64,000 nt of DNA from a virus, in IMG/VR virus record IMGVR_UViG_3300010354_000001, positions 32,001 to 96,000 of that record. One strand, 5' to 3'. The translations under genes and the position numbers were made by a program. The first letter of the stretch is position 1. Each line of letters begins with the position of its first letter. Of the stretch, positions 7,358-56,338 are shown in pieces. The notes under the pieces were generated by a model. The model had not been told where the DNA came from, made no database searches, and saw nothing but the letters and a program-made list of their open reading frames with translations.

Positions 7358-7914
7358 TGGAAAATGTAGTGGAAGAGATTGCCTATCGTTTGTTAGAGTC
7401 TTATAAAATCAAGAAGCCAATAGTAAACCCTTTTGATTTAGCTAACAAAAATGGACTCAAAATAATTTATTTTAGCCCGAGTAAGGAAGAGTTCAAGGAC
7501 GTATCTGGTGCGTTAGATAAGGCGAAGAAAACTATATTTATCAACAAGGAAGAACCAGCGGAAAGGCAATTGTTTACAGCCGCTCACGAATTAGGACATT
7601 ATCTGTTAGGGTACAAGACGGAAGATGTCTTGTATAGGTTAGATAGCTTTTCTAATAATGATGATAAACAAGAGAGGGAGGCTAATTTTTTTGCTGCATG
7701 TTTATTAATACCTGAATACATGTTAGATGATGTTTGCAGGGAATACCAGTTTAGGCTACGTGGAGATGAGGTAAAATTATCAAAAATATTTGGGGTCAGT
7801 CTAAGTTTTATGACGTACAGGCTTAAGCATTTACTTAGGTCTAAGATAAGAAACACTTACCTAGAAGAAGAAATTCAAGAAGGCAATCCTTTTGATGACG
7901 AATTTAAGTGTTAG
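7357..7914 (+). CDS. ImmA/IrrE-family metallopeptidase
   Basis: FTAAHELGH and EREANFFAACLLIP. Confidence 0.88.
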   Translation: MENVVEEIAYRLLESYKIKKPIVNPFDLANKNGLKIIYFSPSKEEFKDVSGALDKAKKTIFINKEEPAERQLFTAAHELGHYLLGYKTEDVLYRLDSFSNNDDKQEREANFFAACLLIPEYMLDDVCREYQFRLRGDEVKLSKIFGVSLSFMTYRLKHLLRSKIRNTYLEEEIQEGNPFDDEFKC

Positions 7915-8308
7915 TAAGGATAAAGAGATAATCAGTCTCTTAGAGACAGAAATTGATGCACCAAACTTAGCACAAGAGGAAGATTCCTCGCAATTAAGGG
8001 AATTAGAAGCAGCAGCAGAAGCAGCAAGGGCACAGAGACAATTAGAAATAAAAGAAAAAGCTGATATTCTCGGAATGCGGCAAACTTGGAGTAACTATAT
8101 TTTGTTAGCTATATGCTTATTGACTTGTGCAAATTTATTGTTCTGTTTAAGTGCTATTTTTTACCATAATCACAACTTGTACCATGTGCAATATAGCGAT
8201 AGCGTATTAATAACTCTACTTACTAGTGGTGCGTGTGAAATGTTTGGGCTAGCTTTTATAGTTGCTCGTTTCTTGTTCTCGTCCACTGGCGATAAAACTA
8301 CAACATGA
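7892..8308 (+). CDS. two-TM membrane protein coupled to the ImmA/IrrE gene
   Basis: Two hydrophobic segments; overlaps upstream stop. Confidence 0.6.
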   Translation: MMTNLSVSKDKEIISLLETEIDAPNLAQEEDSSQLRELEAAAEAARAQRQLEIKEKADILGMRQTWSNYILLAICLLTCANLLFCLSAIFYHNHNLYHVQYSDSVLITLLTSGACEMFGLAFIVARFLFSSTGDKTTT

Positions 8309-8434
8309 GTTCACGCTTAAAGGGATGATTCCGAATGAGTTTGCTTTTAGATGGAATAATAGGGGGATTGAAGATATGTTTGGGTTAATTGTTAGAAGAG
8401 GAGTTTTAGTTTAGTAGGCTAAACTAGAGTTAAT

Positions 8435-9559
8435 ATGGCAAACAAATTATTGCATAAAGCAAAGAAATCAAAAAGTGATGAATTTTACACGCAATATATT
8501 GACATTCAAAAAGAAGTTGAAGCCTATCTAGAGTATAACCCTGACACATTCAGAGATAAAGTAGTTTACTGTAACTGTGACGACCCGTTTGAAAGTAATT
8601 TTTTTCGTTATTTCATATTGAACTTTGAACGAATTGGGTTAAAACGGCTCATTACAACAAGTTATAGACCCTCACCTGTTGCTAATACTCAATTAAGATT
8701 GTTTGGTGACGATGACACTGTCAAACAAAAAAAAGGTCGCCCTAAAATAACAGCCAATAAATTTATTATAAACTCAATTGGCGACATAGATGATGACGGT
8801 GAGTTCAGCCTAAAAGATGTTGCGTTACAACTAAAACAAAACAAGAAGAACGAATGGACACTTTTGGATAGTGACGGTGATTTTCGCAGTGCAGAATCTA
8901 TTGAGTTATTGAAACAATCCGACTTTGTAGTAACCAATCCACCATTTAGTCTTTTCCGAGAATTTGTAAAGCAGCTTGTTGATTACGACAAGAAATTCTT
9001 AATCATTGGAAATATTAACGCTATTACTTATAAGGAAGTTTTTCCCTTAATTAGAGAGAATAAAATATGGTTAGGTACGGGTATGGGGCGATGGATTTCT
9101 GGGTTTATTGTTCCAGAATCGTATGAATTATATGGTACTGAGGCACGAATTGATGAAGATGGTAATAGAATAGTGGCGACAAATAATTGCCTTTGGCTTA
9201 CAAATTTAGACCACGGTAAAAGACACCAACCGCTACCCTTAATGACAATGGCTGACAATATTAAATTCAGCTCACACAAGGATGTGAAGGGGAAGAAATA
9301 TGAAAGATATGACAATTACAATGCAATTGAAATTCCATACACTGACGCTATTCCAAGTGATTATGATGGCATAATGGGTGTGCCAATTACATTTTTGGAT
9401 AAATACTCGCCTGATCAATTTGAAATAATTGGTATGGCAGAAGATAATGGCCGCGGTTATTCTGGAGGTGTAATGATTGACCCCAAAGGTAATTCACATG
9501 CTACTTTACCAAATGGGAAGCACATGTATAAAAGAATATTTATTAGGCATAAAAAATAA
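8435..9559 (+). CDS. adenine methyltransferase, M.EcoRI-like family (orphan)
   Basis: KSDEFYT, VYCNCDDP, GDFRS, VVTNPPFSLFRE, MGVPITFLDKY. Confidence 0.88.
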   Translation: MANKLLHKAKKSKSDEFYTQYIDIQKEVEAYLEYNPDTFRDKVVYCNCDDPFESNFFRYFILNFERIGLKRLITTSYRPSPVANTQLRLFGDDDTVKQKKGRPKITANKFIINSIGDIDDDGEFSLKDVALQLKQNKKNEWTLLDSDGDFRSAESIELLKQSDFVVTNPPFSLFREFVKQLVDYDKKFLIIGNINAITYKEVFPLIRENKIWLGTGMGRWISGFIVPESYELYGTEARIDEDGNRIVATNNCLWLTNLDHGKRHQPLPLMTMADNIKFSSHKDVKGKKYERYDNYNAIEIPYTDAIPSDYDGIMGVPITFLDKYSPDQFEIIGMAEDNGRGYSGGVMIDPKGNSHATLPNGKHMYKRIFIRHKK

Positions 9560-12063: not shown

Positions 12064-12705
12064 ATGTTTTACAGTAAAGAATTAGAAGAAATAAAAAAAC
12101 TACTAGCCGAAAGAGATAGTGAAGCAGAGAGACAACGTAGAGAAATCAGAGATCTTAACGCAACTAACGCAGGTCTTTTAAAAAAGATTGAAGATATTAC
12201 AGATGCAAGAGATAAAAAGATCGAAGATGCTAAACATGAGGCTATAAGACAAGAGTCTTATAAAATTTCTGCTTTGGAGAATGATAAGAAAAAATTAGAG
12301 TTAGAGTTAAGTAATGTTTCTACTAGAGTTAAAATGGAACTTTCTACAGAACTTAACAAAATCACTACTTTACAAGTAGAGATCGAGAAACTAATAGCTG
12401 AGAATACCGCCCTTAAGACAGTGGGTGAGTCTGAATATCTAGCTAAGCTTGCTAAGCTGGATGCGGAGCATAAGGAGTACCAAATTACTGCCGAAAGTAT
12501 AATTAAAGACTTAAAGAATAATTTAGCTAAGGCAGAGTTAAATGCTGCAAATGCAGAGGAAAGAGAAAAGAATACTATTGAGAGATACAGTAAAGAGATT
12601 CAAAGGCTTACTGAGTCTAGAGACAGTATGTTTAAGCAGGTGCAAGAGAGCAATGAAAAACTGCAAGCTATCGTACTTAAAAAATACGACAAGGTAGATG
12701 GATAA
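12064..12705 (+). CDS. coiled-coil protein
   Basis: E/K/L heptad-rich; preceded by TGCTATGAT and AGGAG. Confidence 0.6.
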   Translation: MFYSKELEEIKKLLAERDSEAERQRREIRDLNATNAGLLKKIEDITDARDKKIEDAKHEAIRQESYKISALENDKKKLELELSNVSTRVKMELSTELNKITTLQVEIEKLIAENTALKTVGESEYLAKLAKLDAEHKEYQITAESIIKDLKNNLAKAELNAANAEEREKNTIERYSKEIQRLTESRDSMFKQVQESNEKLQAIVLKKYDKVDG

Positions 12706-13823
12706 TATCTACTTAACAGTTGACCAAATATCGGATAGAGTTTCTAAAGAGGCTCTATCTGATAGGTTAATAAAAAAAAGATGTGAACACTATTCTAATA
12801 ACGCAAAGCTAGACTCTAAGGGTGATGAGTATGCGGATAGGTTAGACAAGGCTCTTAGTTATCTTTCTAATAGAAATCTCAGGATAGAGAACTGGTGCAT
12901 AGGAGTGATTACCGTACCAGACTGCCCAGACATAATACTTAGCATTTACACGTATGATAGAGATTATGGTGATTTTAATGGTAGTGATTATAAAGATTCT
13001 CAGAGGTATTTAGATAGCGGGAAAATTCTACATCCATTAGATGCGGAGGGACATAGAAGACTGTTTCTATCTATAATTAAAGAAACTTTATTACGTCCAG
13101 ACGTATACACAGATGGAGTACCTCAAAAATGGACCATAGTGAATAATGCTAGAGATGTAAAATATAAATTAAATAACGGCATCATAGGATATGGTAATAG
13201 TGTGGAGTGGAGAGCAAACTTTGAAGGGGCTTATGGGTATAGTTGTCCTTCCATAATTAAAGACCATGGATAATATTTACAAACTAGTAGATGATGCCTG
13301 CGTCAAGGTTAAACACGACATTAAGTGCAGGGTGGAGACTGATCGGATCATTCATCACCTAGATGCTCTTATGTGTCTTTCTCATTGGACTGGGGGTAAC
13401 TGGCGAGAAGAAACTACAGAAGAGATACTATATAGGACTAAACAAGGAATGAGATCGCATAATACAGTTTCATTATTTTCTTTTTTAGGGGTTGTGTGGG
13501 AAGTAGGGTACTTCGTAGATGTTCAGACAAGCAGTAGACGTTTCGGGGACTGGGAACAACATAACCAAAGAGTGCATGATTTAAAACTGGCACTTGATCC
13601 TTACAGAATGACTGGCTTACTTCTGTCGCAGGTAAAAAGCTTTATAGAAGATAATAGCTCCAGGGTGTTTGATATTAAGCCAGAAGAAATAGAAAAGTTT
13701 GTACTTCCTATTAAGAATGTGGTTTGGATCGGAGAGGTTAATCATAGTAGGCTCTATTCGCATAGTAATTGCGAGGCTGTGGTAGAGTGGAAATTAAAGT
13801 CCACACAAGAGTTAGGGGTGTGA
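12698..13823 (+). CDS. two hypothetical ORFs (12698-13273, 13266-13823), both starting MDNIY
   Basis: ORF track. Confidence 0.6.
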
Positions 13824-29318: not shown

Positions 29319-29432
29319 CGGACTTGACTCTCAGCTTCGCTGAGGGAGATTATCGGCTTCACAGAGTCTGCTTTTACTCTCGTATGAGTAAGTAGTCTTA
29401 TTAACTCTCCACCTACGCCCATCCTAGGCGTA
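29319..29432 (-). ncRNA. orphan TnpB omega-RNA-like scaffold (copy 3)
   Basis: Near-identical to 55403-55492 and homologous to tnpB 3' end; terminal hairpin replaced by CTCAGC-GAA-GCTGAG; ends AAGTCCG. Confidence 0.7.
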
Positions 29433-30884
29433 TGTTTTAATTATAGCATACTTTTCATCATTTACTATATTTTCCACTAAAGATTCTGGATTTGCATCAG
29501 CTTCTAATACATATTTCATCACTGAAGGTGAGTACCCAGAAATTAACTGAACATTTTTATCTTTACTTAAAGCTGGCATGTTTCCTGTACGCCCACTGAC
29601 GTTCCAAAATACTACTTTAGGCATAGCATAGCCTGAAGCTCTAAATAAATCTTGTATATGCTCAAAGTTGGTTTTGCTTTTATTGGCTACATCAAACTCC
29701 ATATCAGAGATTATTAATATGCTTTTAGGCATTTCTGATTCTGGAGAATTATGCTGTTTAGCTCTTCCTAGTAATAACTCAAATACTTTAGTTAAATCAG
29801 TGTTATAGCTCCAATTAGCCTTTCTTAAAGCATCTACTTTTTCAAGTAAAGTGCCTTCAGGAATAGTAAAGAAAGCTGGATTCTCACTGAAAGTGCAAAC
29901 TAAGTTTTTAAAGTCTCCTACTAATCTTTCTGCTAAATAGATACCTAGTCCGACAGATACATCCATAGGTTCTCCTGCCATAGACCCAGATACATCACAC
30001 ACTACCAGAGTAGATGATGCTTTTCCTTGTAGATAGTCTGGTAAAGCTTTCCATTGGGCATCTGCGGTTGCAGGATCTTTATCAGTAGCTTTGACTAGAT
30101 CAGAAGGAAATAATACTGAGCTATTTATCTTCTTTTCTCCTTTAACTACTGCTTCTAAATACCCGTTAAACCTCTCCTCTGAGTGTTTTCTGAACGCTTT
30201 AGAGTAGTTGCTCATGGCCTTGGAAGGAACATGCTCGTATTTTATCTCATCCCACTTCTTAGCTGACATTTGAGTCTCTACTACTTTAGTATTAGCTGCT
30301 AGTTTCTGTCTGTAAGCTTTCGGCCCGCCTGCCTGCTCTGTTAGTTTCTTTCTTAGCTTAGGATATTTTTTAGACTTCTCCCTAGGTAGCCACTTGAAAA
30401 GTAAACTGTCAGTTGCTTCGCCAAAAGCTTCTTGTATATGTTTAAGAACTACAAGCTTAGTAAAATAGTGAGTAGTATCGCTCTCGTAGAGATCGAATAG
30501 ATAATCCCATCTTGTGAAAGAGACTATGTTGTCTACGTTATTGATAATCGCACTATCGCTGACTACTCTTACTATATCCTCTGAGTTTATCTGGCATTGG
30601 GTAGTTTCGTGTAAAGTAGCTAAGTAGTTAAGGGCCAGTTTAAAAAATCTTCTCTCTCCTAGTCCTCCCCGAATAGCTCCTGCCCAAAAAATTAACTTAA
30701 TAGTCTTTTCTCTGTCGAATTTGTAAGCTTTATCTATTAATGCAGTTATATCTACATCGCTCATCTTCCTAGAGGCTCCTGCTAGGAACACAAAATCCAC
30801 TAAGGGGTTGAAAGATGATTTATTTGTTACAGCACCATTGTCTGTGTGGCCTGTGTTAGTTAAATTTTTGATTAGATTATTCAT
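29424..30884 (-). CDS. Ro60/TROVE-like VWA protein (DUF2828 type)
   Basis: TDNGA, IRGGLGER, RWD, KWLPRE, VPSKAM, MIDAS CDVSGSM, ISDMEFD, VFWNV, SGYSP. Confidence 0.85.
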   Translation of the reverse strand: MNNLIKNLTNTGHTDNGAVTNKSSFNPLVDFVFLAGASRKMSDVDITALIDKAYKFDREKTIKLIFWAGAIRGGLGERRFFKLALNYLATLHETTQCQINSEDIVRVVSDSAIINNVDNIVSFTRWDYLFDLYESDTTHYFTKLVVLKHIQEAFGEATDSLLFKWLPREKSKKYPKLRKKLTEQAGGPKAYRQKLAANTKVVETQMSAKKWDEIKYEHVPSKAMSNYSKAFRKHSEERFNGYLEAVVKGEKKINSSVLFPSDLVKATDKDPATADAQWKALPDYLQGKASSTLVVCDVSGSMAGEPMDVSVGLGIYLAERLVGDFKNLVCTFSENPAFFTIPEGTLLEKVDALRKANWSYNTDLTKVFELLLGRAKQHNSPESEMPKSILIISDMEFDVANKSKTNFEHIQDLFRASGYAMPKVVFWNVSGRTGNMPALSKDKNVQLISGYSPSVMKYVLEADANPESLVENIVNDEKYAIIKTYA

Positions 30885-46791: not shown

Positions 46792-47535
46792 TTATTTAGT
46801 GTACTGCTGAATGAAGTTCCTTTCATCTATAGTAATACTTGTTAAACTTAAAATCCAAGTTAGATAACTCACTAATTCTCTTTCGTTATGTCGCACTAAG
46901 TCATCCATAGACTGTCCTTTAAACTTACCCTTGTTGAATACATACTTGCCTAATCCTTCTTGGAAAGTAAACCAGTCACCTAAAATAAACATCTCACCGA
47001 AACCTATCACTTGAGCAGTCTCAGGAATGTTTAACTCTTCGTACATCTCTTGCATCTTTTGGAATATCTGAAGTGTTGCAATCGCATCTACTTTAGCATC
47101 GTGAGCCCCTTCCATAATTTTCCCCGTATAAAGCTTATATAAGCTCTCTAGATTACATCTATTTAACTTTTTATGTATTGCGTAAGGATCTATAAGATTT
47201 TTGTCTGATAGGGATAATTCAAAACCGCACTCTTTTAACTGCCTAGACAGTATAGAAAAATCAAAAGTAGCGTTAAACATGATTATGTTCTTATAGGCGT
47301 TTAGTATTTTAGATATTCTAGGAGCTACTTCAGAGAAACTTGGAGCATCCTTCAAATCTAATATAGAGATTTTATGTATTTCTTCTGCGTCTGGAGATAT
47401 GGGTACTGTAGGTTTTACATAACTGGAATACGATTTCCCGTCACTAGAAACCAGTGCTATCTGCACTATCTCGTCCCTCCCTAAATCGAGCCCAGTGGCT
47501 TCTATGTCTATAGATAAATACTCGTTTTCTCTCAT
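46792..47535 (-). CDS. DEDDh 3'-5' exonuclease (DnaQ/ExoX-like)
   Basis: DIEATG, FNATFD, AHDAKVDA; FNKGKFKG tail. Confidence 0.9.
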   Translation of the reverse strand: MRENEYLSIDIEATGLDLGRDEIVQIALVSSDGKSYSSYVKPTVPISPDAEEIHKISILDLKDAPSFSEVAPRISKILNAYKNIIMFNATFDFSILSRQLKECGFELSLSDKNLIDPYAIHKKLNRCNLESLYKLYTGKIMEGAHDAKVDAIATLQIFQKMQEMYEELNIPETAQVIGFGEMFILGDWFTFQEGLGKYVFNKGKFKGQSMDDLVRHNERELVSYLTWILSLTSITIDERNFIQQYTK

Positions 47536-47546
47536 ACTAATTAGTC

Positions 47547-47665
47547 CGGACTTGTCCCATTAACATACGTTAAGGGAGATTATCGGCTTCACCGAGTCTG
47601 CTTTAATCACCTCGTATAGTGAGTCTAGTCTTACTAACTCTCCACCAGCGGCCATCCTAGCCGCT
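47547..47665 (-). ncRNA. omega-RNA-like scaffold overlapping tnpB 3' end (copy 1)
   Basis: Position at the tnpB right end; hairpins covary with copies 2 and 3. Confidence 0.7.
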
Positions 47666-48735
47666 TCCTTTGCTATATTGATAGAAGCGTTCCTGTCTCT
47701 GTGGTGCTTTGCACCACATTTACAAGTCCACTCCCTATCAGACAGTTGCAAACTATCATTTATTCTACCACACTCTGAACAAGTTTTACTAGAAGGAAAA
47801 AATCTATTTACCTCTATAACTTGTTTGCCAACAGAGTTGGCTTTATAATTTAAGTAGTTAAGGAATAATCCCCAACCAGAGTCAGCTATTGACATAGCTA
47901 ACTTATGGTTTTTAACTAAACCTTTAATATGTAAATCCTCTACAGCGAATGCTTGATTCTCGCATTCGCTTACTAGAGAATTAGAAACTTTATGAGAGAA
48001 ATCTTTTCTCTTATTAGCTATTCTCTCGTGTAGCTTTGCTACACGGATTCTAGCTTGATTTCTCTTTTTAGAACCTTTCTGCTTTCTGCAAAAATCTCTT
48101 TGAGATTTTTTTAGTTTACTTAAATTTTCTCTTAAAAACTTATTAGGTTTAACTCTAACTCCGTTAGAAGTAATTAAAAAATCTTTTAGACCAAGGTCTA
48201 AACCTGTTATACCTTCTTTATGTTTAATATTAGATAAATCTAAATCTTCTACTTCAAATAAACAAACTGCATAGTAACTACCAGAAGCAGATTTTTTAAC
48301 TGTTACTTTCTTTAACTTGCCTTCAGGCAAGTCACTTCCTCTAAACTTAACTAAGCCTAGCTTCGGTAGTTTTATTTTATTACCAATTAAGGAAGTTCCT
48401 TGTATTATGGAGTAAGATTTTTTGCAATACTTGTTTTTAAATCTAGGAAATTTACCTACCCCTTTAAAAAATCTATTATAAGCTTCTGCTAGATTACCGC
48501 AGGTAATCTGTAATTGTGCTGCTGAAGCAGCACTAAGCCATGTATATTGCTTTTTAAGTTTAGGTAAAAGGTTATTCATATCATAATTAGATAAAGATTT
48601 ACCTGTTCTTAAATATTTCTTTTTACAAATCTCTAACATTTTATTATAGATAAATCTAGAACAACCAAACTCAATCTCAAGTTGTTTAACTTGTGATTGG
48701 TTTGGGTAAAGTTTAATTTCTCTTGATCTAAACAT
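47560..48735 (-). CDS. tnpB: TnpB RNA-guided endonuclease
   Basis: N-terminal HTH; RuvC GLDLG, VEDL, RDRNA intact; Zn finger CSEC...CKCG. Confidence 0.93.
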   Translation of the reverse strand: MFRSREIKLYPNQSQVKQLEIEFGCSRFIYNKMLEICKKKYLRTGKSLSNYDMNNLLPKLKKQYTWLSAASAAQLQITCGNLAEAYNRFFKGVGKFPRFKNKYCKKSYSIIQGTSLIGNKIKLPKLGLVKFRGSDLPEGKLKKVTVKKSASGSYYAVCLFEVEDLDLSNIKHKEGITGLDLGLKDFLITSNGVRVKPNKFLRENLSKLKKSQRDFCRKQKGSKKRNQARIRVAKLHERIANKRKDFSHKVSNSLVSECENQAFAVEDLHIKGLVKNHKLAMSIADSGWGLFLNYLNYKANSVGKQVIEVNRFFPSSKTCSECGRINDSLQLSDREWTCKCGAKHHRDRNASINIAKEAARMAAGGELVRLDSLYEVIKADSVKPIISLNVC

Positions 48736-48775
48736 TATAATTGGAGGTGTCTCCTGATTATATTATACTACGTTC

Positions 48776-49219
48776 TTAACGTATGTTAATGGGATAAGTG
48801 TGGATTCTAATAAATCTATCCATGTGCCTAAAAGGAAATTTATTGGCTATATACATGGTTTCCTGCAGTTCTACATTATCTATATAGTAGTGGGGTTTCT
48901 CTGGATCAAACTTAATCAACCCTGACTTTATAAGTCCTGAGATTATTTTATCTAACTGTTTGTGTAGATCTGCGTGAATCTCCCTATCAAGTATTATTAA
49001 GTTTCCGTTAAACCCATTCTCTCGATCAAAGTCTATATGGTGTATATCAAATCTGTTGTCGGGGTAAAATCCGTGTTTAGCTTCAAATTCATCAGCTAAA
49101 GCATAGCGATCATCATAATTACGCTTCCTGCTTGCAGTCCATCTTTGGATGTATTTAGGATAAAAAAGTCTCTTCTTCTTTTTCAAGCGTACTTTAATTG
49201 TATCCTCAGAGGTCAGCAT
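48776..49219 (-). CDS. HNH endonuclease-like protein; C-terminus supplied by the element TIR; start uncertain
   Basis: IHHIDFDRENG..NL...H...H; ends TYPINIR in the TIR. Confidence 0.7.
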   Translation of the reverse strand: MLTSEDTIKVRLKKKKRLFYPKYIQRWTASRKRNYDDRYALADEFEAKHGFYPDNRFDIHHIDFDRENGFNGNLIILDREIHADLHKQLDKIISGLIKSGLIKFDPEKPHYYIDNVELQETMYIANKFPFRHMDRFIRIHTYPINIR

Positions 49220-49484: not shown

Positions 49485-52397
49485 TTACTGACACGCTACA
49501 CATTCCTCGGTATTTATCTTAGCGGATAATACTGAATCAGATCTCAAGTAATACAAGGTCTTAACTCCAGTTTCCCAAGCTTGGTAGTGAACTTCGTGTA
49601 AGTATTTACCGTCTATGTCACCTTTTTCTGTTCTACCAAAGAATAAATTTAAAGACTGTGCCTGACATATATGTTTCTGTCTTGCTGCTGCCTGCTTAAT
49701 TATAAATCTTTGATCTAACTCATAAGCTGTCTTGAATAGTTTCTTTTCTTCCTCTGTTAAAAAGTCTAACTGTTGAACACTGCCAGCATTTTTAATTATA
49801 GACTTCCATACTTTAGCAGTGTTTTGTCCTTTTTCTTTTAGTAGATTTTCTAGGTAAATATTTTTAACTAAGAAGCTTCCGCTTAAAGTTTTTTGTAAGT
49901 ATGCGTTACCTGCTATAGGTTCTATGCAAGGAGTACAGTTACCTGCGATTATAGATATATTAGCAGTAGGAGCTATAGCTGTTAAATAACTATTCCTGTT
50001 ACCTGGATTATCCTCACACTCACCTTTAATCTTAGCAAGTTCTATAGATTTAGCTCTAGCTGCATTTTGAATCTTCTCAGAGATTATTTTAGCTAAGGCT
50101 ACCGACTGAACTCCCTCAAAAGGAATCTTTTCTCGCATTAGGTATCCATGCCACCCCATCAGTCCTAAGCCTATAGATCTTTCTTTAGAGGCTGAGTAAA
50201 TAGCTCTTTTATAGTCTCTAGGATTTGCAGTTTTAAGGAATAGGGTGAGTACGTTATCTAATGCTTCTGTCGCTATAGAGGATACATACTCTAATTGGTC
50301 TATTGGGCATTGTTCTAGGTTTATGCTGCCAAGTACGCATATGGCCGTTCTGTCTTTGCTTGTTGGCAAGACTATCTCAGAGCAGTTGTGCACTAAAACT
50401 CCTGAGCAATTTAAGTATTTGTCATCTTGAGTGGAAGTTATTATGTAGAAATTGTGATTATCTTCTACAGTGAGATCGTAAACTTCTTGCTCCTCATCAA
50501 GCTCTATAACACTTACTACTTTGTGATTACCTATCACTATGGATTTATAGTTACTCCAACTACCACCAAAACGCATCTCGCTAAAAGTGTAAGGTATTTT
50601 GATTCCAGTCTCCTCCCTGTGTTTAGCTAACATACTTCGAGTTAAATCCCCATGTTTATTATATAATTTTTTGCCTATGGCAATTAATTCTTCGTTAGTT
50701 ATACCGTTATAATTAGGGTTTAGCTCTCCTTTAGCCATCTTATTCTTACTACTTAACCACCTTTCCCTAGAAGACTTATCCATGCGGTAAACCCAGTTGT
50801 TAGTGCCAGATATCTCACTGCTAGTCTTTTTTCTGTGTTCTTTGGCTGAGAGCATCTGTAAATTAGCTATGCCGTCATTTCTGATATCGTTATCTATGTG
50901 ATCGATGTGATACCCTTTTGGAATATCCCCATTATAATAACTCCAGATCAGCCTGTGTTGTTTGGTATGCCCGTTACTAGATGACCCTATATGCCTGTAG
51001 GGTGTCTCTTTATGCAATCTAGTATACGTGTTGAAAGGCTGTAAAGAATCTCCATTCTTTAGGTTTCCTGCTTCTATATACTCGCCATTTTTTAGAGCTA
51101 TTAAATGATCTTTAGTGCATTTGAATTGGCTATTATCATCCAATAACACTTGCACTAACTTCTTAACCCCAGTCTTAAACGCTACTGCTGCTTTGACTTC
51201 ATTAGTCCAGAACGCCTCCTGCACCCCGCCCCCACGAACTCCCCTGCGTTTTATTTTAGCCTCTCTGGCACAATATACTGGGAATTTTTTTCTACCTTTA
51301 GACTCTTCCGCAAGCTGCTTTATAGTAACCCCGTTACGTCCGTCCGCTACAGCTACAACAGTATCCCCTGAAAAACATAAATTACTTTGTTTTATCTCTA
51401 ACCCTTTCTCTGAGTGGCTTTGCAGTATGTCTTTATTAGACGTGTCTATGTAGTGGATGTAAGGTTCTCCAGTTTCAATCCTACTCTTTAAAATCCCCTT
51501 CCATAAAGTTCTGGCATCTACAGTCTTAACTACCTCTTTTGTATGTGGGCATATTAAATTAAATGATTCTTTTTTATTTACCGCTTCCATAAAGTCATCA
51601 GTAATGTTTATCCCGTGATGAATATTTAAGCACTTTCTATTCTCATCCCCTCCAGTAGGTTTGCGAATGTTTATATATTCCTCGCAATCTGGATGACTAA
51701 CATCTAGGTAGATAGCTGCCGAAGCTCTTCTGGTCGAGCCTTGGGATATGGCTAATGTATTAGAATCCAAGACTTTCATGAAGGGGATAGTACCTGAAGA
51801 TTTTAAAGTCTTCCTAATAGGTGCTCCATGACCTCTTATGTCTCCCATAAAAACACCTAGCCCTCCTCCGCCTGCTCCTAAGTGGGCACACTCCTCTATA
51901 GTCTTATAGATGTCTGTGATAGAATCTCCCATGTAATTTAGAAAGCAGGAAACTAAATTTCCTTTGTTAGTGGCAGTGTTAGTTAAAACTGGAGTAGCTG
52001 GCATGAACCATAACTTAGATATAACTTCATAAAGCTCTGTGGCCTTAAGTATTAATCCTTCAGTTACTTCCACCTCATCTTTATCATACTGATCTGCTAA
52101 AGTAATACCTGCTGCTACTCTAGCAAAGAACTGCTGTGGCCCTTCTACTAGCTTTAGGTTATCTGACCTTAAGAAATATCTATCTCTTAAAGTCTCCAGC
52201 CCAAAATAAGTTAATAGCTTATTTCTGCTGTTATCTAACGGTATATGTTTTTGTAGAGTCTTTACTTTCTGTGTGTAATTAGGGCTGTCCCAAGAATTAC
52301 TATCTCCTACCTCTTCTATGGTCTGTGCAAGTAATATGTCCCTAGCTCCTTCTATATCACCTTTATCTAAAGCTGCTAATATGTCTTTCTTCATCAC
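49485..52397 (-). CDS. nrdA: class Ia ribonucleotide reductase alpha subunit with intein
   Basis: PATPVL, SCFL, GEPY, SNL|CSEI, APTA, KTLYY, C-terminal CVAC. Confidence 0.95.
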   Translation of the reverse strand: MMKKDILAALDKGDIEGARDILLAQTIEEVGDSNSWDSPNYTQKVKTLQKHIPLDNSRNKLLTYFGLETLRDRYFLRSDNLKLVEGPQQFFARVAAGITLADQYDKDEVEVTEGLILKATELYEVISKLWFMPATPVLTNTATNKGNLVSCFLNYMGDSITDIYKTIEECAHLGAGGGGLGVFMGDIRGHGAPIRKTLKSSGTIPFMKVLDSNTLAISQGSTRRASAAIYLDVSHPDCEEYINIRKPTGGDENRKCLNIHHGINITDDFMEAVNKKESFNLICPHTKEVVKTVDARTLWKGILKSRIETGEPYIHYIDTSNKDILQSHSEKGLEIKQSNLCFSGDTVVAVADGRNGVTIKQLAEESKGRKKFPVYCAREAKIKRRGVRGGGVQEAFWTNEVKAAVAFKTGVKKLVQVLLDDNSQFKCTKDHLIALKNGEYIEAGNLKNGDSLQPFNTYTRLHKETPYRHIGSSSNGHTKQHRLIWSYYNGDIPKGYHIDHIDNDIRNDGIANLQMLSAKEHRKKTSSEISGTNNWVYRMDKSSRERWLSSKNKMAKGELNPNYNGITNEELIAIGKKLYNKHGDLTRSMLAKHREETGIKIPYTFSEMRFGGSWSNYKSIVIGNHKVVSVIELDEEQEVYDLTVEDNHNFYIITSTQDDKYLNCSGVLVHNCSEIVLPTSKDRTAICVLGSINLEQCPIDQLEYVSSIATEALDNVLTLFLKTANPRDYKRAIYSASKERSIGLGLMGWHGYLMREKIPFEGVQSVALAKIISEKIQNAARAKSIELAKIKGECEDNPGNRNSYLTAIAPTANISIIAGNCTPCIEPIAGNAYLQKTLSGSFLVKNIYLENLLKEKGQNTAKVWKSIIKNAGSVQQLDFLTEEEKKLFKTAYELDQRFIIKQAAARQKHICQAQSLNLFFGRTEKGDIDGKYLHEVHYQAWETGVKTLYYLRSDSVLSAKINTEECVACQ
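50385..51377 (-). mobile_element. intein with HNH homing endonuclease in nrdA
   Basis: CFSGDT...VLVHN|C; internal HIDHIDNDIRND.IANLQ..S..EH. Confidence 0.9.
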
Positions 52398-52799: not shown

Positions 52800-54770
52800 T
52801 TAGAAATCTCCCCAATCTGTGTCACCTTTACTGTATTCTGTTGCTCTCGCCTCGAAGAAGTTAGCATGTTCTTTGCCAGACATCATTAGATCCATCCAAT
52901 CTAAAGGATTATCCTTAATGCCAAAAATAGCTTTTAATCCTAAGTTTTTAAGTCTGTAGTCTGCGATATATCTTATGTAGTGCTTTAACTGTTCTGGGGT
53001 TAGCCCATCTACAGCCCCCATCTCGAAACAGGTGTCAATAAAATTATCTTCCAGTCTAACTATCTCTTCACAGGCATCATAAATTTCTTTTTTAAAGTCT
53101 GGATTTCTCAGTAGTTCATACTCTTTGACTAACTCTCTAAATAGGTACGAAACCCCATCAGAGTGGCAGTTCCCTACTATTGCGTGCTTAAGTCCTCTGC
53201 GTACAATTAAAGATCCTTCAGGCATAGTAAAACAGTACACTTTTCCTTTATAATGCTTTCTTTCTTGGTTTACAGCCTTCCACTTTCCTTCTTTAAGCTT
53301 TTTATTTATAGAGACTTTGTAGCTAGTATTGAATTTATCACTCCTATCGCCTGGACGTTCTTGCACAGTACACAAATACCCTGCTAATATAGCCACAGCT
53401 TGGACTTTGTCCCTAGATACTTCGCAAGTAGTTACATAATCTATGAATGAACCGTCCCCATACCTGTCATGCCCGTCCCAGTGCCCTATTTCTGATATTA
53501 TGTCTTTGGCTTTTGCTGAACTTAGAGTTTCTAGGTTTATCCAAGATAAAGACTTATCCCTAAATATTATAGGAATAATAAAGTGGTAGTTGGCGTACCC
53601 TTTCCTATCTAGACTAACTGTATATTTAATACCAGACTCAAGCAATAGCCTTTCTATCCTTTCTTTTTTGCGATCTTTTTTTATGTTTAAATTAACACTA
53701 GTTCCGCCTGTCCTTTCCCCTAAATTTTTTGGACGTAAGTCCAATGACCCATATGCCTGAACTGCTATTCTTAGCCTCTCTAGAGGAGTTAACAGACCTT
53801 CCCCACCTACCCCACGCCCAGCTAATGGGTATGTGTATCTATTAGAACTTTTAATCTTTGCTAAATCTTTAGCTTTAATCTTTTGCAGGCTGCTAAATTT
53901 GTACCCATCCAGTGAGTCTGAAGGATTGTACTTATAGTTAAATAGTAAATCATGATCTTCGGTGCAGGCTATGTTTAGCCTAGCTTTACCATCCTTCATG
54001 TAAATCAGCTCACCATCAAAATCTTTTTCTATATAATTTATAGGAGTGTCAAACGATATCCCTCTAGTCGTTAAGTCCATCTGTGCTACTTTTTCCCCAA
54101 AAGCGACATCCCTAAATAACTTCCAGCCGTTCTCAGTTAATACCTCGGTTTTATCGTCAAAACAGTTCTCGTCTTTCACGCTCCAGGTTACTATCTGCCC
54201 AACTCCCTTCATTAAGCCCCTTCTAGGAAAGTTCATTAATACTGCGAAAGATGCGAATAAGCTTACCCCTTCTATAAATCCGCCAAACACAGCTAAGTTT
54301 TTAGCTAGTTGCCTCGGAGTCGGTGCGATGTTAACTCTAGTACCGTCATCTAGAGAGTTTAGGTGCATCATATCAAATTTATCTCTCATAGCTGCGTAAT
54401 CTTTAAAAGCCTCATACTCGGAGTCTGGTAAGCCTAAAGTATCATTTAGTTGGCTATATGCCCATGTATGTAAGACTTCTGCGTTAGCAAAAGCTGTGAG
54501 CATCGCAGCTATTTCAGGCTTAGGAAAGTTCTTTATTAGAGAGGTATTGTAGTTATTCATTACCTCTTGATCTCCAATTGTAAAAAACCTAAGAATCTGA
54601 ATTATTAAATTTTTTTCTGGCTCGGTTAACTTCTTATTAAAGTCGTAAATATCATCCGTCATCGGCACTTCAGTAGGAAGCCAGTGGGCCTTCTGCTGGT
54701 TAGTCATGTACTCAAAACAAATCGGATACTCTAAAGGTTTAGGAACCTCTCTCTTAGTTAAAATGCTCAT
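52800..54770 (-). CDS. nrdB: class Ia ribonucleotide reductase beta subunit with intein
   Basis: HWLPTEV, EVLH..AY, EGVSLFASF, DEN|CH, NFFE.RATEY. Confidence 0.93.
   Translation of the reverse strand: MSILTKREVPKPLEYPICFEYMTNQQKAHWLPTEVPMTDDIYDFNKKLTEPEKNLIIQILRFFTIGDQEVMNNYNTSLIKNFPKPEIAAMLTAFANAEVLHTWAYSQLNDTLGLPDSEYEAFKDYAAMRDKFDMMHLNSLDDGTRVNIAPTPRQLAKNLAVFGGFIEGVSLFASFAVLMNFPRRGLMKGVGQIVTWSVKDENCFDDKTEVLTENGWKLFRDVAFGEKVAQMDLTTRGISFDTPINYIEKDFDGELIYMKDGKARLNIACTEDHDLLFNYKYNPSDSLDGYKFSSLQKIKAKDLAKIKSSNRYTYPLAGRGVGGEGLLTPLERLRIAVQAYGSLDLRPKNLGERTGGTSVNLNIKKDRKKERIERLLLESGIKYTVSLDRKGYANYHFIIPIIFRDKSLSWINLETLSSAKAKDIISEIGHWDGHDRYGDGSFIDYVTTCEVSRDKVQAVAILAGYLCTVQERPGDRSDKFNTSYKVSINKKLKEGKWKAVNQERKHYKGKVYCFTMPEGSLIVRRGLKHAIVGNCHSDGVSYLFRELVKEYELLRNPDFKKEIYDACEEIVRLEDNFIDTCFEMGAVDGLTPEQLKHYIRYIADYRLKNLGLKAIFGIKDNPLDWMDLMMSGKEHANFFEARATEYSKGDTDWGDF
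53169..54164 (-). mobile_element. intein in nrdB (degenerate LAGLIDADG-like core)
   Basis: CFDDKTEVLT.NGWK...TEDH...VYCFTMP..LIVRR..IVGN|C. Confidence 0.88.
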
Positions 54771-55190: not shown

Positions 55191-55323
55191 TTGTATAAAT
55201 ATTGTTACTTAACTTTTGTGTTTTAAATATTAAGATTTTTGGTAAAATTTTAAGGCACGGACATAAAAGGAATAAATGGAAAACAATGAAAACTGCCGTG
55301 CCTATACTCCTATTATAGCATAC

Positions 55324-55518
55324 CAAACTTATCCCATTAACATACGTTAAGAATGTAGTATAATATAACTAGGCATGATAACCAAGTGTCTATTACGAAA
55401 AATACGCCCAGGATGGGCGTAGGTGGAGAGTTAATAAGACTACTTACTCATACGAGAGCAAAAGCAGACTCTGTGAAGCCGATAATCTCCCTTAACGTAT
55501 GTTAATGGGATAAGTCCG
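55324..55518 (+). mobile_element. MITE derivative of the tnpB element retaining promoter and omega-RNA-like scaffold
   Basis: 24-bp perfect TIR core (55327-55350 / 55492-55515); 8-bp direct repeat TAGCATAC at 55316-55323 and 55519-55526. Confidence 0.88.
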
Positions 55519-55824
55519 TAGCATACTACCGAAAGATCTACTACCATAATAAAAAGGTGAATAATGAACTTGATAATCTGTCTTTGGGTCTTGCATTAAC
55601 TCCACATGACATAAAGAACCAAGACAGGGATAATAATCTCGTGGAAAATACGTTATTATGTTATTTTCTAGATCCTCTCTATCTAAGATAAACCATTGCA
55701 CTTCACATTTGTCATCATAATTATAGTAAACCGCATAGTCAGTAGTCTCTACGGACTTACATGATGCATAACCTAACTCTTCCAATACACTCTTACAATG
55801 CTCGAACTTATCTATTGGATTCAT
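55492..55824 (-). CDS. hypothetical protein, C-terminus extended by the MITE
   Basis: Ends RTYPINIR in the TIR. Confidence 0.6.
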   Translation of the reverse strand: MNPIDKFEHCKSVLEELGYASCKSVETTDYAVYYNYDDKCEVQWFILDREDLENNIITYFPRDYYPCLGSLCHVELMQDPKTDYQVHYSPFYYGSRSFGSMLRTYPINIR

Positions 55825-56338
55825 TGATTAACTGCTCATGTATTGGCTTTGAGAAGTCTAATTTCTTAGTCTTCCCTTTCTTGTATTCAGAGATTCCCCT
55901 TTCTATAACAGACTCTAAGTCATCCCCAAATAATATCTCTGCTATCTTTGGTTTAAAGTAATCTTTACCTTTACCGACTTTCCCATCTTCCCTAAACACA
56001 GGTTTACCGTCTTCTAGCTTAGATAGATTAGAGTCTTTAACTTCCTCGAAACATCTTTCTAGTATCTCTACAGCTTTATCTCCATAGCCAGCATCTTCTA
56101 ATACTTGCAGACCTATATTAAAAGCTACAAAGGCTACATCACATACACCATCTATGGTCTCTACTAAACATTCTTTGTTGTAGGCAGTGTCTACCACAGA
56201 CCAAAGATAAGAATTAAGCCCTTGGCTCAGTTCTCCTACTTCCTCATCTAAATACCTTAGATGATCTTGTGCTGATTTTAAAGGATCTGGATTACCTACT
56301 CTTACTATCTTATCTATAAACTGTTTAATTTTTTTCAT
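55808..56338 (-). CDS. MazG-like/PRA-PH nucleotide pyrophosphohydrolase
   Basis: EEVGEL, DGVCD, SNLSK..DGKPVFREDGKV.K. Confidence 0.82.
   Translation of the reverse strand: MKKIKQFIDKIVRVGNPDPLKSAQDHLRYLDEEVGELSQGLNSYLWSVVDTAYNKECLVETIDGVCDVAFVAFNIGLQVLEDAGYGDKAVEILERCFEEVKDSNLSKLEDGKPVFREDGKVGKGKDYFKPKIAEILFGDDLESVIERGISEYKKGKTKKLDFSKPIHEQLINESNR

Follow-up and report, generated by a model that had tools for sequence, protein, structure and literature searches.

The element and its tnpB gene

The 64,000-nt stretch of DNA analysed here (the window) comprises bases 32001–96000 of IMG/VR virus record IMGVR_UViG_3300010354_000001. This record is complete, is 113,974 bp long, has direct terminal repeats and represents the genome of a freshwater-type phage. 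Between positions 47547 and 48802 of the window lies a 1256-bp TnpB element, here called element A, for which the minus strand is the sense strand. Its parts follow in the order left end, promoter, tnpB, guide-RNA scaffold and right end, and TnpB and its guide RNA are its sole cargo. The tnpB gene (47560..48735, minus strand) encodes 391 amino acids, with matches to the Pfam families HTH_OrfB_IS605, OrfB_IS605 and Cas12f1-like TNB, and combines the helix-turn-helix domain, RuvC domain (D, E, D) and zinc ribbon of a TnpB. The RuvC residues D180, E266 and D347 and the four zinc-finger cysteines (CxxC...CxC) occupy invariant columns in an alignment with 40 relatives, and ISDra2 TnpB (8BF8/8EXA/8H1J) is matched over its full length (E 2e-69). 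Relatives of the protein (P0001–P0056) are 50–94% identical to it, with P0001, P0003 and P0004 at 87–94%. Judged from these features, the gene apparently encodes an intact RNA-guided nuclease.

The original prediction, made from the DNA letters alone, placed an intact tnpB between 24-bp inverted repeats with one mismatch, and this description holds: all catalytic and zinc-binding residues are in place, and a repeat search returned 30-nt arms (47545–47574 and 48775–48804) that are 90% complementary. With the termini fixed by this search and by alignment to IS1595-family inverted repeats, the right-end inverted repeat occupies 47547..47576 (minus strand; CGGACTTGTCCCATTAACATACGTTAAGGG when read from outside) and the left-end inverted repeat occupies 48773..48802 (minus strand; CACACTTATCCCATTAACATACGTTAAGAA from outside). 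The outer end reads CGGACTT on the plus strand from 47547, exactly as predicted. At the left terminus the CGG of the window copy has decayed to CAC; a copy in the sister phage contig L007 has CGG at both ends. A 19-nt core of the terminal inverted repeat (TIR) occurs four times in the window, as against zero occurrences expected from shuffles. Two of the four bound element A, and the other two bound a 195-bp derivative of A that lacks tnpB, a miniature inverted-repeat transposable element (MITE; 55324..55518, plus strand) consisting of the left end with its promoter, the complete scaffold and the right end. The predicted promoter of tnpB is sigma-70-like (48762..48789, minus strand) and agrees with the consensus at 11 of 12 positions: a –35 motif (TTAACA) inside the left inverted repeat, a 16-nt spacer and a –10 motif (TATAAT). 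Both motifs are also kept in the MITE.

The right inverted repeat as part of the predicted guide RNA

The predicted guide-RNA (omegaRNA) scaffold spans 47547..47666 on the minus strand (~116–120 nt), overlaps the 3' end of tnpB and ends in ...AAGTCCG; its last 30 nt are the right inverted repeat. Scaffold sequence without tnpB is found in the 195-bp MITE, in a third scaffold copy in the window (29319..29438, minus strand), which has a right end with a different terminal hairpin (CUCAGC-GAA-GCUGAG) and is without a left inverted repeat, and in a guide-only A-type MITE of 199 bp that lies outside the window (genome positions 12697-12895; L005:1332-1530). The scaffold stretch (~116 nt) is kept in all three tnpB-less copies, ending …AAGTCCG or …AAATCCG. 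Its first stem covaries (GCGGC/GCCGC versus ACGCC/GGCGT), with three base pairs changed on both sides in three of the six sequences. A search of Rfam with the scaffold found no matching family.

The terminal hairpin of the scaffold (47556..47576, minus strand; CCCUUAAC-GUAU-GUUAAUGGG) is formed by the inner part of the right inverted repeat. RNAalifold missed this hairpin, its stems not being alignable by sequence, and single folds were used in its place. Each copy folded into a hairpin at the corresponding position; the stems were CCCUUAAC/GUUAAUGGG, CACUUAAC/GUUAAGUG, CUCAGC/GCUGAG and UCUAG/CUAGA. Because a hairpin is kept at one position through four different stems, the comparison supports the proposal in the original prediction that the right inverted repeat doubles as the terminal hairpin of the predicted scaffold; the repeat also makes up the scaffold's 3' tail (…AAGTCCG). 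By analogy with characterised TnpB systems, and from position only, the guide would be the DNA 3' of the right end (47527..47546, minus strand; GACTAATTAGTATGAGAGAA), which in element A runs over the start codon of an exonuclease gene.

Filled and empty insertion sites

A comparison of filled and empty sites, which had been proposed as a check, was made with sister phage contigs at 80–90% DNA identity. In contigs L025 and L026, collinearity with the window extends to 47545 and resumes at 48806; ~10 nt lie between these points, and the 1.26-kb element is absent. In L007, a copy that is 89% identical to element A sits at a different site, at which this genome and four more sister contigs have no insert. 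Element A is a real insertion with sharp ends. The MITE, too, is absent at the corresponding spot in sister L027, where there is one related copy of the abutting bases, ATTATATCATAC followed by TAGTAGAC, and the DNA rightward is non-homologous. Insertion polymorphism is seen for element A, for its copy in L007 and for the MITE. The 12.7-kb MITE, as the 199-bp copy is called below, is a clean insertion without duplication when compared with four sister phages. It has a different terminal hairpin, and its left terminus (GTTCCCCACC) is unrelated to the CGGA end of the family.

Two side observations concern the empty sites themselves. At the empty insertion point of element A, L025 (2950-3040) and L026 (minus strand) have an imperfect short tandem, GACTAATGCTA/TACTAATTGCA, positioned exactly at that point, and another (TATCATAC/TAGTAGAC) lies exactly at the empty MITE insertion point of L027 (600-640). 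These tandems could be traces of past excisions, or they could make the site attractive for insertion.

Element A has relatives of other types. The same genome contains a second TnpB element, B, outside the window (genome positions 7422-8677; L274:123-1378), which is also present in L146 (2674-3928) and L147. It shares ~57% amino acid and 70% nucleotide identity with A and is bounded by a perfect 24-bp inverted repeat, TCGGAATAATCCCTTCATAGACAT, that is hairpin-free. The copy of B in this genome is absent from two sisters, and in L146/L147 the element occupies a second site, empty in four relatives; B thus lies at two different sites in sister phages, with a target duplication at neither. A third type, C, is found in another virus contig, L159, with the ends CGGAAGTATG…CATACTTCCG. 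Further phage TnpB elements in the virus contigs L161 (5066-5195) and L162, 53–57% identical to type B, end in …AATCCG and …ATTCCG and have weak inverted counterparts upstream (TGGATTAT and GGGAATAA). The CGGA/TCCG terminus may be widespread among phage-borne TnpB elements.

Ends homologous to IS1595-family inverted repeats

Where do the inverted repeats come from? Comparators from the IS1595 family of insertion sequences (IS) were taken from 401 Pseudomonadota genomes, 94 of them with a match to PF12762 (the IS1595 transposase), and from plasmids annotated 'IS1595 family transposase'; locus L259 (G389, an unpublished genome) was excluded from every analysis. Four comparators carry a PF12762 transposase, two of which (L272 and L273) are annotated by NCBI as 'IS1595 family transposase'. 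L251 (1809 bp) has the ends CGTAATTATCCCCTTGACCTACGTA and a flush 8-bp duplication, TTTTCCTT. L258 (2019 bp, with two passenger open reading frames, ORFs) has the ends GGCGTTTATCCCTTTGACTCACGTA and a flush 8-bp duplication, ATATTATT; L273 (2527 bp, also with passenger ORFs) has the ends GGGGATTATCCCCTTGACGCAAGTA and a flush 8-bp duplication, GCACGCAA. In L272, which ends in …TATCCCCTTGACATACGGTA, the duplication is imperfect (6/8). IS1595-group elements gave the duplications TGCGGGAT and ATTCCCAA. Flush 8-bp duplications were present in all five IS1595-family controls (L251, L258, L266, L267 and L273). The ends of L266 and L267 match CcTGATT, the terminus of the IS1595 group.

The best pair of ends was the element A terminus, CGGACTTATCCCATTAACATACGT, and the left inverted repeat of L251, identical at 19 of 24 positions. 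When the A terminus was slid over 32 IS1595 loci, four of the five best 24-mer matches fell at or within the inverted repeats of the IS, three of them beginning on the terminal base; shuffled queries gave a mean best score of 16.3 and a maximum of 18. Indeed, 19 ends (11 from TnpB elements and eight from four IS1595-family elements) align essentially gap-free from position 1, with the consensus CGGAATTATCCCCTTnACATACGTTA. Because its 24–30-bp repeats align in register with IS1595 inverted repeats at scores above those of shuffles, element A has IS1595-type ends: by this alignment, homology to the ends that IS1595-family transposases bind runs through its inverted repeats base by base, starting at the terminus. 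Likeness of types B and C to IS1595 ends is visible in the alignment as CGGAAnnAT, ATCCCTT and TTGAC. The original prediction had gone further and assigned the ends to the ISNha5 group. The outer ends are CGGACTT in A, CGGAATA in B and CGGAAGT in C; A fits CGGnnTT, presumably the end consensus of the ISNha5 group in ISfinder, and B and C do not. Elements of that group are also typically large and have passenger genes. The family assignment is retained; the subgroup label is provisional.

Target duplications and junctions

IS1595-type insertion would leave an 8-bp target duplication, and such duplications recur in this family. First, the MITE is flanked by TAGCATAC at 55316..55323 and again at 55519..55526 (both plus strand), a perfect repeat (8/8) that is flush with both ends, as originally predicted; the right copy is also the first 8 nt of the predicted guide of the MITE. 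Second, the C-type element of L159 has a perfect 8-bp duplication, AAAAACTG, likewise flush with its ends. Third, the L007 site reads …GTTA-TAGTGCTG-CCATC in the five empty sisters and …GTTA-TAGTGCTG-[element]-TAG-ATACTTTGCAGGG-TGCTG-CCATC when filled. The preferred though unproven reading of this junction is that TAGTGCTG was duplicated and that its right copy (L007:5188-5208) was split after TAG by 13 nt, ATACTTTGCAGGG. A reading of the same junction as a 6-bp repeat with a 15-nt tail from the donor site was set aside, the split duplication explaining three more bases. The 13-nt insert rewrites the predicted guide of the L007 copy, and the guide therefore no longer matches the empty allele. 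The inserted 13 nt are loosely similar to DNA right of the MITE site (TAGCATACT / TAGTAGACTTTT).

In all four A- and C-type insertions, the trinucleotide TTA stands on the left-end side, immediately 5' of the eight bases next to the left end, within the tetramers ATTA, ATTA, GTTA and TTTA. These eight bases are the 8-bp repeat where there is one; at the window copy, they are merely the bases abutting the left end. TTA was found at that position in none of the five autonomous IS1595 control elements. It would fit a target-adjacent motif (TAM) placed such that the uninterrupted allele is matched by the guide, which would consist of the duplication and the right flank. Attempts to find one boundary rule, or an IS605-type target motif, that holds for all copies were unsuccessful.

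Origin of the nuclease and the missing transposase

The original prediction described TnpB as captured by its present transposon, and comparison with distant relatives agrees. The TnpB search of the 401 Pseudomonadota genomes found nothing but a canonical IS605-type relative in the bacterial genome G117 (42% identity), which has IS605 anatomy, with asymmetric hairpin ends and no TIR or duplication. Among genes immediately upstream of distant TnpB relatives, 25 of 141 encode Y1 transposases and three of 141 encode resolvases, and no DDE family is among the 25 most frequent upstream-neighbour families. From the G117 anatomy and this neighbourhood, in which Y1 transposases and resolvases are found and DDE families are missing among the frequent members, it follows that the nuclease of element A comes from IS605 stock and that its present packaging is secondary, the capture that had been predicted.

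No transposase was found in the phage itself. The complete 113,974-bp genome has no match to PF12762 at E<=1, to the Y1 transposase family PF01797 or to the serine recombinase/resolvase family PF00239 (IS607 TnpA), and therefore any transposase must act in trans. Autonomous copies with an IS1595 transposase, which the original prediction suggested looking for, did not turn up in the phage or in five related virus records, and scans with the exact TIR core were unproductive: the 19-nt core has no match in IMG/VR, and a single match in 596 Gb of genomes, in L006, was rejected for its unrelated flanks, with ~4 chance matches estimated. A scan of IMG/VR for the scaffold pattern returned only the L007 contig. 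A blastn search of GenBank phages with the region and the MITE gave no match, a tblastn search of phages and plasmids with TnpB gave nothing above 44% identity, and a metagenome scan gave TnpB relatives at <=45% identity among the matches listed. Among the loci examined, there is no transposase-bearing member of this TnpB branch.

Weighing the IS1595-type reading and its alternatives

We put at roughly 65% the probability that element A belongs, as a non-autonomous member, to a transposon lineage of IS1595 type, with tnpB and its guide RNA as its only cargo. This reading is supported by several lines of evidence: the homology of the ends, the recurring 8-bp duplications, the insertion polymorphism, the TTA motif that the autonomous IS1595 controls lack, the covariation of the hairpin and scaffold, the promoter, the integrity of the nuclease and the contrast with the asymmetric, TIR-free ends in G117.

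A number of observations weigh against it. In ungapped 24-mer comparison, the TIRs of types B and C did not score above shuffled controls against IS1595 inverted repeats. PF12762 has no match in the phage genome or in the five related virus records, no IS1595-family transposase adjoins any TnpB examined, and none of the 32 IS1595 loci contains a TnpB. The 'empty' reference for the MITE, L027, is non-homologous on the right and itself has the imperfect tandem TATCATAC/TAGTAGAC; the MITE duplication therefore rests mainly on its 8/8 identity. At the window copy of A, no duplication is visible, as the original prediction had conceded, the flanks having diverged from the sisters at just that point. 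Compared with empty sisters, there is no 8-bp duplication at B in L146/L147 (<=1 nt, with 3 extra nt), at B in this genome or at the 12.7-kb MITE, where a matching left repeat is also missing. The expectation of 8-bp duplications at other insertions was thus borne out at the MITE and L159 and, in split form, at L007, and it failed at these three. Flanks are cleanly collinear in two of the three duplication-free insertions; at B in this genome, 2–3 nt differ from the sisters. Confidence in the IS1595-type reading is not higher mainly because these three insertions are unexplained.

One alternative accepts that the ends came from IS1595 and holds that most of their present spread is independent of a DDE transposase and goes through breaks made by TnpB or otherwise and repaired from a copy elsewhere by homing between co-infecting phages, end-joining or microhomology capture of element DNA. 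Variable junctions would be expected from such a process, and the three insertions without duplication do have odd ones: 3 extra nt (B in L146), 2–3 missing target nt (B in this genome) and an unrelated 10-nt left terminus (the 12.7-kb MITE). The right junction in L007, with 13–15 extra nt and GTGCTG repeated, is odd in a similar way, and the lack of a transposase in the phage fits as well. However, the perfect, flush 8-bp repeats of the MITE and L159 fit a staggered DDE cut and are unexpected from end-joining, the ends are sharp and identical in independent copies, and the perfect 24-bp TIR of B implies that a protein binding both ends has exerted selection on it. Spread of this kind as the main route is quite unlikely.

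Could element A instead be an IS200/IS605 (IS1341-group) element that carries only TnpB and is moved by a Y1 TnpA of the host, with the symmetry of its ends a by-product of similar end hairpins? The protein is a typical IS605-type TnpB by its match to ISDra2, Y1 transposases and resolvases are among the upstream neighbours of its relatives, a hairpin-forming palindrome is present at both ends and some insertions of the family are scarless. The structure of the ends argues the other way. The repeat does not stop at the palindrome: it continues, inverted, for another 9–12 nt and reaches the terminus itself, giving A a 30-nt terminal inverted repeat, and the 24-bp TIR of B is hairpin-free. The ends are homologous to IS1595 inverted repeats, 8-bp duplications occur at the MITE, L007 and L159, no 4–5-nt target is shared by the sequences abutting the left ends, the phage has no Y1 gene and the canonical relative in G117 has asymmetric ends. 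Movement by a Y1 transposase is very improbable on this evidence.

Several IS families produce 8-bp duplications, and IS630 and IS5-type elements produce duplications of 2–4 bp, not 8. That the ends belong to another 8-bp-duplication DDE family (ISL3, IS6, IS66, IS256 or the like) or to a TnpB-linked IS630/IS5-type element, their likeness to IS1595 being convergent, is a long shot: no transposase is physically tied to the element ends, and a 2026 review (PMC13565253, citing PMC10691335) gives ISL2, IS630 and IS1031 as the DDE-linked TnpB families, but the element whose inverted repeat gives the 19/24 in-register identity has no transposase other than PF12762, and three more elements of this kind gave further matches.

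Comparison with known systems

The premise of the original prediction, that prokaryotic TnpB normally travels on IS200/IS605 or IS607 elements, is out of date. The main text of Altae-Tran et al. 2023 (PNAS; PMC10691335) describes six DDE-transposase-associated TnpB branches (DDE-1 to DDE-6), all with inverted terminal repeats, as well as solo TnpBs with ends nearly identical to those of transposase-bearing elements. As in the systems described there, the phage elements place a prokaryotic or viral TnpB within symmetric inverted terminal repeats rather than IS605/IS607 ends, and the 3' end of TnpB is <250 bp from the transposon end. They differ from the systems in that text in residing in tailed-phage genomes and in having guide-only minis alongside the nuclease; moreover, no partner element with a transposase turned up. 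IS1595 is not named in the main text of PMC10691335 or in PMC13565253, and the supplement of the former may include this clade; in literature mentioning TnpB together with IS1595, titles and abstract openings address no link between the two. TnpB in DDE-type inverted ends was thus already published in 2023, and what is added here is a tested IS1595 assignment and natural filled and empty sites.

A parallel is known from eukaryotic and viral transposons. In Fanzor1/Fanzor2* (Bao & Jurka 2013, PMC3627910; Yoon et al. 2023, PMC10711439), as here, a TnpB-family nuclease is the cargo of a non-autonomous cut-and-paste transposon, including in viral genomes, and the scaffold of the guide RNA extends across the TIR as far as the edge of the transposon (PMC10711439). 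There are two differences. First, Fanzors are reported to have a short, fixed target duplication within the scaffold, whereas the duplication here is a variable 8 bp and would therefore form the first part of the guide. Second, the protein of element A is an ordinary ISDra2-like TnpB.

Other systems share individual features. The 'transporter IS' of the IS1595 family (Siguier et al. 2009, as cited in PMC11891212), of which L258 and L273 are examples, also have cargo genes between their repeats, 8-bp duplications and homologous inverted repeats (…TTATCCCnTTGAC..ACGTA); they encode their own PF12762 transposase, whereas the phage elements encode none and have TnpB and an omegaRNA as cargo. TnpB-only elements of the IS1341 group (ISDra2 relatives, such as that of G117) share the nuclease family and the order of promoter, tnpB, 3'-overlapping scaffold and guide past the right end. 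Canonical IS200/IS605 elements lack inverted repeats and duplications (PMC13565253, PMC4810608); unlike the phage elements, they have asymmetric subterminal hairpins and insert 3' of a fixed 4–5-nt motif (PMC4810608). The 195-bp and 199-bp copies, which keep only ends, promoter and scaffold, resemble stand-alone omegaRNAs (Altae-Tran 2021, as cited in PMC10691335) and palindrome-associated transposable elements (PATEs; PMC3119063). In contrast to PATE-type derivatives, the phage copies have DDE-type repeats at their ends, and an 8-bp duplication flanks one of them, making that copy a MITE in the strict sense. A cyanophage preprint that mentions TnpB and inverted repeats (10.64898/2026.02.14.705889) was considered and set aside, as it concerns a 30-kb invertible segment and not element ends.

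Neighboring genes

On the right-end side, a gene for a DnaQ/RNase T-type exonuclease, recognised by Pfam, flanks element A (46792..47535, minus strand), 11 nt downstream of the right end. On the other side lies an HNH-type ORF of 147 amino acids (48776..49219, minus strand), which takes its last codons (…TYPINIR*) and its stop from the left inverted repeat; its homologue in an element-free sister ends in …RLMLY*. The same is seen at the MITE: the HNH-type ORF (repeat 48776-48802) and an unrelated ORF of 110 amino acids (repeat 55492-55518) both read into the inverted repeat in the same frame, and both finish with the repeat-encoded peptide TYPINIR and a TAA stop. The DNA immediately right of the MITE (55521-55933), which holds the 110-amino-acid ORF, is replaced by unrelated sequence in the sister phage (L027:87-618), and this break in homology coincides with the predicted guide target of the MITE. 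Further along the window, two large ORFs (49485-52397 and 52800-54770) have translations resembling ribonucleotide reductase subunits, each split by an intein-like insert, and the first ORF contains an HNH-like motif.

Mechanism and implications

How might such an element move and persist? On the IS1595-type reading, an IS1595-family DDE transposase, encoded by the host or by a co-resident element, would bind both repeats and cut and paste the cassette in trans. The duplication abuts the right end, so the first 8 nt of each guide would be duplicated target. TnpB would then cut uninterrupted alleles (TTA, target and right flank) in co-infecting sister phages or in sister copies of the genome, and recombinational repair would copy the cassette into the cut allele, resulting in homing or retention. 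Additional guides would come from the tnpB-less copies. The copy in the window may have lost its mobility, because its left terminal CGG has become CAC and it has no visible duplication.

A fuller proposal, tentative and rather doubtful as a whole, joins these elements. An ISDra2-like TnpB and its guide RNA would have been re-fitted to a duplication-making IS1595-type transposon in prokaryotic viruses, with the transposase-binding repeat serving as the 3' scaffold module, the 8-bp duplication, variable in sequence, as the guide seed and TTA as the TAM. The cassette and its guide-only minis would home between co-infecting phages, and insertions without a duplication would represent element DNA captured at nuclease-made breaks, independently of a transposase.

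What are the implications of these elements? First, the compact 391-amino-acid nuclease and its ~116-nt scaffold are an ordinary candidate for TAM and editing screens. Second, at the level of sequence, the phage elements are a bacterial counterpart of an arrangement otherwise documented mostly in eukaryotic Fanzors: a nuclease inside a cut-and-paste transposon, whose transposase-binding repeat would also be part of the guide RNA. Third, the phage lineage is a natural experiment, as it combines elements of several types with guide-only minis and with sites that are filled in some close relatives and empty in others. The questions that it may serve are how a guide copes with a variable duplication, whether TnpB drives homing between phages and how TnpB passed from the scarless IS605/IS607 elements to DDE transposons.

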